This document shows, piece by piece, positions 5,254 through 7,164 of a stretch of DNA of 11,676 nucleotides. This DNA comes from a virus (Duplodnaviria; Heunggongvirae; Uroviricota; Caudoviricetes). A model generated the notes under the pieces. It was not told the origin of the DNA and did not search any database. It was given only the letters and a program-made list of their open reading frames with translations. The position numbers were made by a program, and so were the translations under genes. The stretch lies in IMG/VR virus record IMGVR_UViG_2740892258_000014. One strand, given 5' to 3'. How positions within the stretch are numbered: the first letter of the stretch is position 1; each line of letters starts with the position of its first letter.

Positions 5254-5340
5254 ATGGAAGAAGAATTTGAAGAGTTCGAAGAGCATCCGCAGGATGTGAT
5301 GGAACAATACCAGGACTATCCTTATGACTACGACTATTGA
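5254..5340 (+). CDS. Possible 28-aa highly acidic, Tyr-rich micro-protein (MEEEFEEFEEHPQDVMEQYQDYPYDYDY)
   Basis: ATG 8 nt after the N stop with GAGGTGA SD; its initiation region (AGGTGATATATGGAAGAA) is repeated exactly at the start of the 5583 gene. Below the ORF-track size cutoff; coding status unproven. Confidence 0.25.
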   Translation: MEEEFEEFEEHPQDVMEQYQDYPYDYDY

Positions 5341-5524
5341 TAAGAATCAATGGTGTGGACAATTCAAGCGATGCAATGGATGCAAGCTGCAATCGGAATG
5401 CATGGTTAAGCCTGAAGAAATGTTTCCTGTAATGGAAGATGGGAAATATGTCGATAAATGGGCAATACGAACGACGGCAATGATTGCCAGAGAACTTAGT
5501 AAACAGAATAACAAGGCTGCCTGA
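5324..5524 (+). CDS. ral: Ral-like restriction-alleviation protein (66 aa, Cys-rich)
   Basis: MTTTIDKNQWCGQFKRCNGCKLQSECMVKPEEMF... matches my recollection of lambda Ral (66 aa) and lies just downstream of N; this rests on memory and is unverified. Confidence 0.55.
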   Translation: MTTTIDKNQWCGQFKRCNGCKLQSECMVKPEEMFPVMEDGKYVDKWAIRTTAMIARELSKQNNKAA

Positions 5525-5541
5525 TGGTGGCCTTTATTTTT
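5513..5541 (+). terminator. Intrinsic terminator-like hairpin after the ral-like gene
   Basis: AAGGCTGCC-TGATG-GTGGCCTT (9-bp stem with two G:U pairs; the stop codon is in the loop) followed by TATTTTT. Confidence 0.5.
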
Positions 5542-5582
5542 GTCCGTAAATAATTTCATGCTTATTACAATCAAGGTGATAT

Positions 5583-6005
5583 ATGGAAGAACAAGCAAAC
5601 AAGATTCTCGTAGAACTTCTGCAAAAAGCCAGTAATGGAATAGACGCGGCTGTTTCATTTAGCCAGGCACAGATTCCTGATGTTGTTCGTCAGTTGCTAA
5701 CATGGAGTTTTGTCCATAGCGCACTTTTCCAAGTGGCTGGGTTGTTGCTTTTAATTGCAGCAATGAAACTTCCTAGTTTTGCAAGAACGGCAAGAAATAA
5801 TGGCGAGAGATGGACGTCTTTAGATGGATGTCCAAACGATAGATATTTTATATCTTCGTTTTATTACGATATATGCACTGTATTTGCTCCTATATTTGGC
5901 TCAATTATTGGCGTTTTAATTATTGCCTTCAATTTCGAATGGTTGAAGATTTGGCTTGCACCTAAGTTATTCCTAATTGAATATGCAGCATCATTGGTTA
6001 AGTAA
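5583..6005 (+). CDS. Hypothetical membrane protein with two predicted transmembrane helices (candidate superinfection-exclusion/abortive-infection type)
   Basis: 140 aa; hydrophobic segments LFQVAGLLLLIAAM and APIFGSIIGVLIIAF; AAGGTGA SD; terminator-like hairpins on both sides. Function inferred only from context. Confidence 0.6.
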   Translation: MEEQANKILVELLQKASNGIDAAVSFSQAQIPDVVRQLLTWSFVHSALFQVAGLLLLIAAMKLPSFARTARNNGERWTSLDGCPNDRYFISSFYYDICTVFAPIFGSIIGVLIIAFNFEWLKIWLAPKLFLIEYAASLVK

Positions 6006-6009
6006 TTTC

Positions 6010-6035
6010 AGGCCGCATAGTCGGCCTTTATTTTT
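6010..6035 (+). terminator. Intrinsic terminator after the membrane-protein gene
   Basis: AGGCCG-CATAGT-CGGCCT hairpin followed by TTATTTTT. Confidence 0.65.
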
Positions 6036-6194
6036 GGCATAAACAACAGAATAAACACTGCACTGTGTATTCATTCCAACGAGTGAATACACGGAGCAAT
6101 GTCGCTCGTAACTAAACAGGAGCCGACTTGTTCTGATTGTTGGAAATCTTCTTTGCCCTCCAGTGTGAGGGCAATTTTTTTTGATGGAGGATAT

Positions 6195-6545
6195 ATGAGT
6201 GAAGTAACAGATTTAGTTGTTATTGAAAAAGCAAATGCAATGACTGTATTTCAGTCTGCCGACCAGATTGAAGAAATTCTCCAAAAGGTTGAACGTGAAG
6301 TTATGTCATTTGTGCCTGATATCACAACGGCAAAGGGCAGAAAGGAGATCGCTTCTCTGGCGTATAAAGTTGCGCAGACGAAAACATATCTCGATGGTCT
6401 TGGCAAAGACCTTGTTGCTGAACTGAAGGAAATTCCAAAGCTAATTGATGCCAACCGCAAGACAGTGCGCGATCGCCTTGATGAACTGAAAGCCAAGGCG
6501 CGCCAGCCTCTTACTGATTATGAGGAAGAATCAGGCGCGGATTAA
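6195..6545 (+). CDS. Hypothetical protein (116 aa), upstream partner of the E/R/K-rich ORF
   Basis: Preferred start ATG 6195 with GGAGG SD 5 nt upstream (the track ORF starts at 6099 but that stretch contains a hairpin plus T8 run at 6155-6182). 3' end overlaps the next ORF by 26 nt in a different frame. Confidence 0.55.
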   Translation: MSEVTDLVVIEKANAMTVFQSADQIEEILQKVEREVMSFVPDITTAKGRKEIASLAYKVAQTKTYLDGLGKDLVAELKEIPKLIDANRKTVRDRLDELKAKARQPLTDYEEESGAD

Positions 6546-7164
6546 AGCCGAAGAAGAAGCTAAGGCAGCAGCTGAAGCTCTCGCAAAGCAAATTGAGTCT
6601 GACCATGAAATAGCGATTTTGATGGATCGCGAATTTGACCGCCAAAGAGAAGAGGCAAGACTCAAAGCGGAGCAGGAAAAGCGAGAGCATGAAGAACGAT
6701 TAAAAAGAGAAGCTGAAGAGAAAGCCAGAGCAGAAGCCGAAGCAAAGGCAAAAGCCGAAATTGAAGCAGCAGCAAGGCGAGAAGCAGAAGCTAAGGCCGC
6801 AGCGGAACGTGCAGAGCGTGAACGCATTGAAGCCGAGCAACGAGCACAGCGCGAAGCAAAAGAGGCAGCAGAACGAGCTGAAAGAGAAAAGCAGGCAGCA
6901 ATTGAAGCAGAACGCAGAAAAGCACAGGAGGAGGCTGAACGAATCCGTCGCGAGGCTGAAGCAAAAGAGCAAGCCAGAATAGCAGAAGAAAAAAGAATCA
7001 AGGACGAAGAAGAGCGTAGAGCAAAGGATAAAGCTCACCGGAAAGAAGTAAATAACAAAATACTTGCTGACCTTATCAAGGTTGGCGCATCAGAAGATGT
7101 TGCTAAAAATATCATAACAGCCATCGTAAAAGGCGAAGTATTCGCAACAAAAATAACCTACTAA
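6520..7164 (+). CDS. Highly charged E/R/K/A-rich predicted alpha-helical protein (214 aa) with a short hydrophobic C-terminal domain
   Basis: About 150 residues of EAEAKAKAE/ERAERER-type sequence, then ILADLIKVGASEDVAKNIITAIVKGEVFATKITY; no SD at its ATG, so translation may be coupled to, or frameshifted from, the upstream ORF. Confidence 0.5.
   Translation: MRKNQARIKAEEEAKAAAEALAKQIESDHEIAILMDREFDRQREEARLKAEQEKREHEERLKREAEEKARAEAEAKAKAEIEAAARREAEAKAAAERAERERIEAEQRAQREAKEAAERAEREKQAAIEAERRKAQEEAERIRREAEAKEQARIAEEKRIKDEEERRAKDKAHRKEVNNKILADLIKVGASEDVAKNIITAIVKGEVFATKITY

Follow-up and report, generated by a model that had tools for sequence, protein, structure and literature searches.

The N-to-cIII interval of a CUS-3-type prophage as a probable mosaic of four cassettes

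The stretch of DNA analysed here (the window: 11,676 nucleotides (nt), one strand, of a virus of the Caudoviricetes; IMG/VR record IMGVR_UViG_2740892258_000014) carries at positions 5254–7164 a block of small genes between the antiterminator gene N and cIII. The question raised by this block is whether its genes act together, for instance in the exclusion of other phages, or were brought to the same place one by one. An earlier reading made from the letters alone (the sequence-only reading) had described an acidic micro open reading frame (ORF), a Ral-like gene, a membrane protein with two transmembrane (TM) segments, and an E/R/K-rich helical protein spread over two ORFs, the whole being punctuated by terminators. 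We found the ORFs and the three terminator hairpins to be present where that reading had placed them, as judged from the ORF list, a consensus scan and fold energies, and accessory cargo between N and cIII was borne out. In our assessment, however, which we hold with considerable confidence, the block represents the stretch from N to cIII in the early-left (pL) operon of prophage CUS-3 and consists of four mosaic cassettes that do not form a single functional module.

The closest relative of the block is CUS-3 itself, a P22-like (Lederbergvirus), K1-specific phage of Escherichia coli RS218. A nucleotide comparison of CUS-3 with window positions 5254–7164 gave 99.9% identity over the full length, and its genes ECRS218_0046–0049 (record CP000711) agree with the window in sequence, gene order and terminators, and share an identical frameshift. 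Shigella phage Sf6 is 97.8% identical over the same positions and shows the same gene order (genes 35, 34 and 33) and terminators; it differs in having an intact gene 33 of 322 amino acids (aa) and an additional gene, 36, between N and ral. Positions 5540–7170 of the window are 100% identical in prophages of UTI89, NU14, IHE3034, APEC O18 and other genomes of sequence type 95 (ST95) E. coli, an identity over 1631 nt that refers to the E. coli matches listed. The locus has already been sequenced and annotated, in CUS-3 and in Sf6, and is hence known; the block is real but ordinary. The window itself is of small importance, since its most striking feature, the charged-helix protein in two ORFs, is a lineage-specific pseudogene. 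What interest remains lies in two protein families that have no Pfam entry, one of the Sf6 gene-34 type and one related to Agt of phage phi80, rather than in the locus.

The mosaic nature of the block is apparent from its alignment with phage lambda. Mosaic recombination would have joined four cassettes: orf28 and ral; an insertion that carries the membrane-protein gene; the lambda ral–ea10 intergenic region; and a broken agt-like gene. Across the orf28–ral–tL2a region lambda and the window are close, with Ral differing at about one residue and with the ral terminator, an intergenic hairpin and the terminator tL2a nearly identical. In lambda, the ral terminator (ending in …GGCCTTTATTTTTG) joins directly to the sequence found in the window from position 6037 onward. 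The window, in contrast, has 494 base pairs (bp) inserted at this point, on the plus strand at 5543–6036, with a copy of the 14-nt direct repeat GGCCTTTATTTTTG on either side (5529–5542 and 6023–6036); the two copies, which form our direct-repeat family D3, lie 494 nt apart. The third cassette (6037–6194, plus strand) is nearly identical to the lambda ral–ea10 intergenic region. Beyond it the two phages part again, as ea10 stands in lambda where the window has the agt-like gene, and an ORF annotated as sieB, which in lambda lies between N and orf28, is absent from the window.

The 494-bp insertion shares some properties with a moron. It lies between sequences that are adjacent in lambda and ends in a terminator of its own at 6010–6035 (plus strand; 6010–6027 in the scan), a 6-bp GC-rich stem followed by TTATTTTT with a fold energy of −9.7 kcal/mol (z = −2.1). 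As for the promoter by which a moron would be expressed in the lysogen, no site upstream of the membrane-protein gene reached 9 of 12 sigma-70 matches, in a scan that weak promoters could escape. The first ~40 nt of the insertion (5544–5582) resemble the 3′ end of N and the junction between N and gene 34 in phage HF4s and a Cronobacter prophage. The orf28 gene (5245–5265) and the gene for the 140-aa membrane protein (5574–5594) have in common a 21-nt block (AGGTGATATATGGAAGAA…) that contains the ribosome-binding site and the start codon. Both features look like scars of cassette shuffling, and from them it would follow that the cassette was brought in by recombination from phages in which this gene is the first after N.

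All of the cassettes lie on the plus strand of the window, which is the direction of pL transcription. They would be transcribed from pL, with N-dependent antitermination carrying the polymerase past three intrinsic terminators. The claim that such terminators punctuate the block was confirmed, as each of the three hairpins is followed by a T-run and is more stable than expected (z = −3.3, −2.1 and −3.1). In addition to the terminator of the insertion described above, these are a 9-bp stem directly after ral (plus strand, 5513–5541; in the scan 5513–5534, then a T-run), homologous to the lambda ral terminator and with a fold energy of −13.9 kcal/mol, and a tL2a homologue (plus strand, 6153–6182; 6153–6174 in the scan) with an 8-bp stem followed by T8, a fold energy of −13.2 kcal/mol and near-identity to lambda. 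The latter is labelled “terminator; homology to phage lambda; tL2A” in the Sf6 record. Across the region, the consensus scan detected 10 terminator-like sites, versus 4.0 ± 2.4 in shuffled sequences. Dependence on N antitermination, as the sequence-only reading had proposed, is supported by the N gene, a pL-like promoter and nutL boxA/boxB elements upstream, and no sigma-70-like promoter was found on the plus strand within 5254–7164 at a threshold of at least 9 of 12 consensus matches.

Do the membrane protein and the charged-helix protein nevertheless form a pair? The sequence-only reading had suggested an exclusion or abortive-infection module of this kind. Such a two-component system would not be out of place here, as the N–cIII interval of lambdoid phages does carry exclusion and anti-restriction cargo, of which ral and sieB are established examples, and CUS-3, Sf6 and some prophages have the two genes side by side. 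They also occur independently of each other, however: the membrane-protein gene is found without agt in loci L015–L018, and the agt-like gene without the membrane-protein gene in mEp213, which has other genes at the upstream position. In the window, lambda-derived DNA containing a terminator separates the two genes, and the helix gene is a pseudogene. PADLOC returned chance-level hits only (E = 0.017 or worse), and the gene-34-type family profile proved unrelated to lambda SieB (hhalign probability 0.2%; no Pfam hit). Both families are, moreover, found in contexts unrelated to lysogeny, and it is recombination modules, rather than defence loci, that intact relatives of the agt-like gene accompany. 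That the two genes are distributed independently largely refutes the idea of an exclusion pair, to which we attach a very small probability.

The charged-helix protein had been taken for the product of two ORFs, but proved to derive from one gene, a member of the Sf6 gene 33/phi80 agt family, that is broken by a 1-nt insertion at position 6531. The 5′ part of this gene (6195–6545, plus strand) encodes 116 aa and matches positions 1–114 of the 362 of PHROG 1376 with an E value of 5e-52. The true start codon is the ATG at 6195, with a GGAGG ribosome-binding site ahead of it; the start at 6099 given in the ORF list, which would yield 148 aa, was rejected, as the extension crosses the lambda-derived intergenic hairpin and tL2a. 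Alignment to the Sf6, mEp213 and HF4s sequences shows that the 116-aa ORF consists of 112 native residues of the N-terminal domain, followed by SGAD and a stop codon. These 112 residues are identical to the N-terminal domain of intact E. coli alleles. The inserted T at 6531 (plus strand; context GAGGAAGAA-T-CAGGC) is the sole insertion or deletion within the coding sequence relative to Sf6 gene 33, mEp213 and HF4s, and the native frame ends after residue 112. The remainder of the gene, an E/R/K/A-rich helical linker and a conserved C-terminal domain of ~45 aa (6532–7164, plus strand; PHROG 1376 positions 161–362), is out of frame. It is contained in a 214-aa ORF (6520–7164) that overlaps the 116-aa ORF by 26 nt and whose core is composed of 27% E, 24% A, 17% R and 11% K. 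This ORF owes its start to a fortuitous ATG at 6520.

An alternative is that the overlapping ORFs represent a deliberately split gene or a case of programmed ribosomal frameshifting, and that the product is still functional. The 26-nt overlap would be in line with this, as would the intact N-terminal domain and the stable inheritance of the allele in at least 38 complete genomes. By inspection, however, we saw neither a Shine–Dalgarno sequence before the ATG at 6520 nor a slippery motif at GAA-GAA-T-CAG. The allele is also restricted to a single, near-clonal prophage lineage, to judge from the listed matches, which are 100% identical over 1631 nt. Among 443 E. coli records containing the 60-nt segment around the insertion, the exact allele with the additional T was found in 38 and the exact intact allele in 350 (~80%). 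Of the 79 IMG/VR loci examined, 68 have an ORF of 284 aa or longer, in most cases of 322–334 aa, and none has the 116-aa allele; other decayed alleles exist (of 19, 130 and 138 aa, and a fusion to abc2). We consider a functional split gene highly unlikely. Likewise, single-base insertions and deletions are a common type of sequencing error, and the gene might be intact in nature; the additional T, however, lies outside any homopolymer run (GAAGAA-T-CAGG), and many laboratories contributed to the 38 complete E. coli records in which the identical allele occurs, the CUS-3 phage record having it as well. An error in sequencing or assembly can be dismissed almost entirely.

Judged from its sequence, the agt-like gene of the window is a decayed, dispensable pseudogene confined to the ST95 CUS-3 lineage, not a functional member of its family. 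In UTI89, the Prokaryotic Genome Annotation Pipeline (PGAP) likewise labels the gene “frameshifted” and a pseudogene. CUS-3 plates normally on its host (PMC10461980); the agt-like gene is therefore dispensable for plaque formation.

Decay of agt-like genes is a repeated occurrence in prophages. Alleles cut to 19, 97, 130 and 138 aa are found in other E. coli genomes (for example proteins P0190, P0165 and P0234) and in IMG/VR loci L059–L063 and L073, and one decayed allele is a deletion fusion of the first 80 agt residues to the C-terminus of Abc2. The stretch coding for the ER/K-rich linker (6540–7060) is made up of degenerate, GAAGC-rich repeats with a period of 6 nt and of repeat families of 27–37 nt. 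Differences in linker length among intact alleles are consistent with expansion and contraction mediated by such repeats.

What, then, is the intact protein? The sequence-only reading had left at least two of the products outside any family. There is indeed no Pfam family for the membrane protein or the helical protein, but they belong to PHROG 3054 (Sf6 gp34) and PHROG 1376 (Sf6 gp33/phi80 Agt), respectively. The profile and structure searches that this reading had put forward as a check were informative in part: scans against Pfam, NCBIfam and PADLOC returned only Ral, cIII, Kil and a weak match for N, PHROG placed the two products just mentioned, and Foldseek remained uninformative. Intact Sf6 gp33 has 322 residues and shares 51% identity with phi80 Agt along its whole length (E = 1e-64); intact agt-like proteins range from ~245 to ~370 aa. 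The family is built from a conserved N-terminal domain of ~112 residues, a single ER/K helix of variable length and a conserved C-terminal domain of ~45 residues. AlphaFold2 (AF2) models show the N-terminal domain as a three-helix bundle. In an intact 245-aa allele, the model has a continuous helix from residue 81 to residue 218, with a predicted local distance difference test score (pLDDT) above 90 across most of it.

More distant relatives did not emerge. Members of the Agt family had no match in Pfam, the family profile found no relative among the sequences of the PDB, and Foldseek comparison of the AF2 model with BFVD and the PDB retrieved only members of its own family and generic three-helix bundles. 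Two candidate relatives of the N-terminal domain were rejected: Sipho_Gp157, as hhalign against a Gp157 protein yielded a probability of 0.3%, and DUF1351, for which Pfam scans contained no hit. We also rejected the label TolA, which PGAP and several phage records apply to these proteins, as a composition artefact. The resemblance is limited to an E/K/A-rich helical composition like that of TolA domain II; the agt-like product has neither a TM anchor nor the C-terminal domain of TolA, and Pfam and NCBIfam scans of both ORFs, Sf6 gp33 and 30 homologues returned no TolA family. The pipeline label is misleading, the true relative being phi80 agt.

The genomic neighbourhood of the agt-like genes points to recombination: whatever the recombinase family, intact members are encoded directly ahead of a phage recombination module. 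In the phi80 (Lula) record, Agt is described as “anti-toxin for Gam; Mog (modifier of Gam)” and gamL as “toxic without Mog”. Agt/Mog of phi80 resembles the product of the window in its N-terminal domain, ER/K linker and C-terminal domain and in its early-left position upstream of recombination genes; the window differs by the frameshift, and the anti-RecBCD gene of its phage is of the Abc2 type, with no Gam homologue. In phi80 the neighbours are gam–bet–exo. Agt-like genes also lie near Erf and an exonuclease in Pseudomonas phage JBD44, exoVIII and bet in Serratia phage Eta, exo8 and RecT in a Yersinia phage, and, in Vibrio phage Seahorse, an ATPase with a weak AAA_24 (Sak4-type) match (E = 1.8e-5, below the Pfam cutoff). 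A survey of 35 sampled IMG/VR agt-like loci, in which downstream ORFs of at least 60 aa were counted, showed a single-strand annealing protein within the first three downstream ORFs in 34. These were of the Rad52 type (11), ERF (11), RecT (6) and the AAA_24/Sak4 type (6). The agt-like gene of the window, too, lies upstream of a recombination module (erf). The family would be an accessory of recombination or of anti-RecBCD functions, possibly a tether that holds two partners at a distance, and its synteny with modules of four unrelated recombinase families makes this role testable.

The second family without a Pfam entry is represented by the 140-aa product of the inserted cassette (5583–6005, plus strand), an inner-membrane protein of the Sf6 gene-34 type that matches PHROG 3054 over positions 1–137 of 137 (E = 8e-52). 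Its hydropathy profile has hydrophobic segments at residues ~41–62 and ~96–117, and no match was found in Pfam, NCBIfam or PADLOC. Searches with a single sequence and with a profile yielded 472 and 1635 homologues, respectively, none of them named. The family displays an unusual conserved–variable–conserved pattern. Almost no variation is seen in the first ~43 and the last 24 residues, while the TM helices and the loop connecting them vary in both sequence and length, the proteins having 120–161 aa. Between variants, synonymous divergence at the termini is 0.6–0.9 and non-synonymous divergence 0.05–0.12, and the middle is ~20% identical. The low non-synonymous relative to synonymous divergence implies strong purifying selection on the termini. 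The loop is usually K/R-rich and the N-terminal tail acidic; the sequence hints at a topology with both termini on the outside (N-out/C-out).

In enterobacterial prophages, the gene-34-type gene is the first, second or third after N, and an agt-like gene may or may not follow it. Virulent phages have homologues too, namely N4-like FSL SP-058, Justusliebigvirus VEcB and several Vibrio phages; in these the gene is located in early or DNA-metabolism regions, and its neighbours are not constant. Beside the homologue in FSL SP-058 stands a “tail protein” that we considered as a relative of Agt and rejected; it is an unrelated collagen/YadA protein.

These properties invite comparison with known exclusion proteins. 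The 140-aa protein could be expressed from the prophage and, like SieA or HK97 gp15, block DNA entry of superinfecting phages, its hypervariable TM segments and loop reflecting an arms race against the injection proteins with which such phages arrive. Like SieB, SieA and the HK97 gp15 type, it is a small phage inner-membrane protein encoded near N. The insertion-like architecture with its own terminator, the hypervariable centre between conserved termini and the frequency of the gene in enterobacterial prophages would all suit such a role. Against it, the scan showed no recognisable promoter dedicated to the gene, which in many phages is simply the first after N in the lytic pL operon, and homologues are present in strictly virulent phages, for which protection of a lysogen is irrelevant. 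The protein also shows no similarity to known Sie proteins, SieB profiles included, or to PADLOC models. We therefore regard prophage-expressed exclusion as unlikely, though a good deal less so than the exclusion pair discussed above.

The protein would, instead, be made early in lytic growth and not in the lysogen. A lytic-phase membrane function, for example exclusion of incoming DNA in the manner of Imm, or a role as an anchor for a conserved partner bound via both termini, is a suggestion that we make with low confidence. In a broader and somewhat speculative form, for which the odds in our estimation are slightly better than for prophage-expressed exclusion but still poor, the gene-34-type proteins may be an unrecognised and widespread family of phage inner-membrane proteins with at least 1,600 members, in which the termini engage a conserved partner while the TM hairpin diversifies; separately, Agt may be a universal ER/K tether that accompanies all four families of single-strand annealing proteins. 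If true, the reading of the gene-34-type family would fit, for example, an exclusion or immunity protein of the lytic phase, or a protein that anchors phage DNA metabolism to the membrane.

Several points weigh against these interpretations. The AF2 model of the gene-34-type protein is mediocre (all-helical, pLDDT 71), and a Foldseek comparison of it with BFVD was uninformative, returning only members of its own family and generic three-helix bundles. The timing of its expression is deduced solely from the absent consensus promoter, and a weak promoter or one not of the sigma-70 type would be missed. As regards Agt, its role as a Gam antitoxin in phi80 rests on GenBank annotation. A tblastn search with lambda Gam and phi80 GamL detected no Gam homologue either in the window or in eight further loci that carry an agt-like gene, from which it follows that neutralisation of Gam is not the general role of the family. 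Most agt-like loci are lambdoid, and the synteny with recombinases partly reflects conserved operon order. Finally, the 116-aa N-terminal domain encoded in the window could retain some activity.

The first cassette, orf28 with ral, is that of lambda. The gene at 5324–5524 (plus strand), which the sequence-only reading had called Ral-like, is ral itself. Its 66-aa product matches the Pfam family Ral (PF11058) at 66 of 66 positions with an E value of 4.3e-48, and PHROG 1055 with 4.5e-49, and the gene is annotated as ral in both CUS-3 and Sf6. Lambda Ral alleviates type I restriction (EcoKI/EcoBI) by enhancing modification. From its near-identity to lambda Ral, we infer that the protein of the window would act in restriction alleviation as well. 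The acidic micro-ORF before it (5254–5340, plus strand, 28 aa) is lambda orf28 (lambdap47), to which it is 100% identical in amino-acid sequence. It overlaps the start of ral by 17 nt, an overlap that is the same in lambda. Comparing the window with lambda and Sf6, we found three substitutions in orf28, each of them synonymous in its frame. Since the substitutions are synonymous and the ORF overlaps the start of ral, the comparison suggests, if weakly, that orf28 is a translated peptide or serves translational coupling to ral, more than that it is a chance ORF.

Within the lambda-derived intergenic cassette, between the terminator of the membrane-protein gene and tL2a, lies a very stable hairpin (6055–6102) with a stem of ~14–20 bp, a fold energy of −24.9 kcal/mol and a z-score of −6.9. 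The hairpin is identical in lambda, where it lies between ral and tL2a; it has no U-tract and no match in Rfam. It could be an element of RNA processing or stability, or a palindrome for protein binding.

The surroundings of the block are those of an early-left operon. Upstream, cI (3774–4424) is followed by a terminator, and operator repeats with a pL-like promoter (~4488–4546; promoter at 4517–4545) precede N. Between this promoter and N, a boxA-like GCTCTTTAAC followed by a short hairpin (CCCGC…GCGGG) at ~4592–4633 constitutes a candidate nutL for the N protein of the phage; an inverted copy of the boxA block downstream of cro (3483–3500) is a candidate nutR. The N gene (4946–5245, plus strand), the upstream boundary of the block, matches PHROG 271, “anti-termination protein N-like”, with an E value of 1e-36 and is annotated as N in CUS-3; in the Pfam, NCBIfam and PADLOC scans its product gave the weak match mentioned above. 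Downstream, the block is bounded by cIII (7189–7320, plus strand; Pfam Lambda_CIII, E = 4e-15) and kil (7305–7457, plus strand; Pfam Lambda_Kil, E = 1.7e-20). The annotated erf lies ~520 nt past the stop codon of the agt-like gene, beyond cIII, kil and two small annotated ORFs.

An Rfam scan of positions 4400–7700 had as its sole hit a sub-threshold match to STnc230 on the opposite strand. Antisense to the pL–nutL–N leader, the minus strand contains a 129-aa ORF at 4545–4934, which PGAP annotates as a hypothetical protein in UTI89. In the CUS-3 record, the same stretch is labelled only as the boundary sequence “bsq5”, and the ORF is probably spurious.

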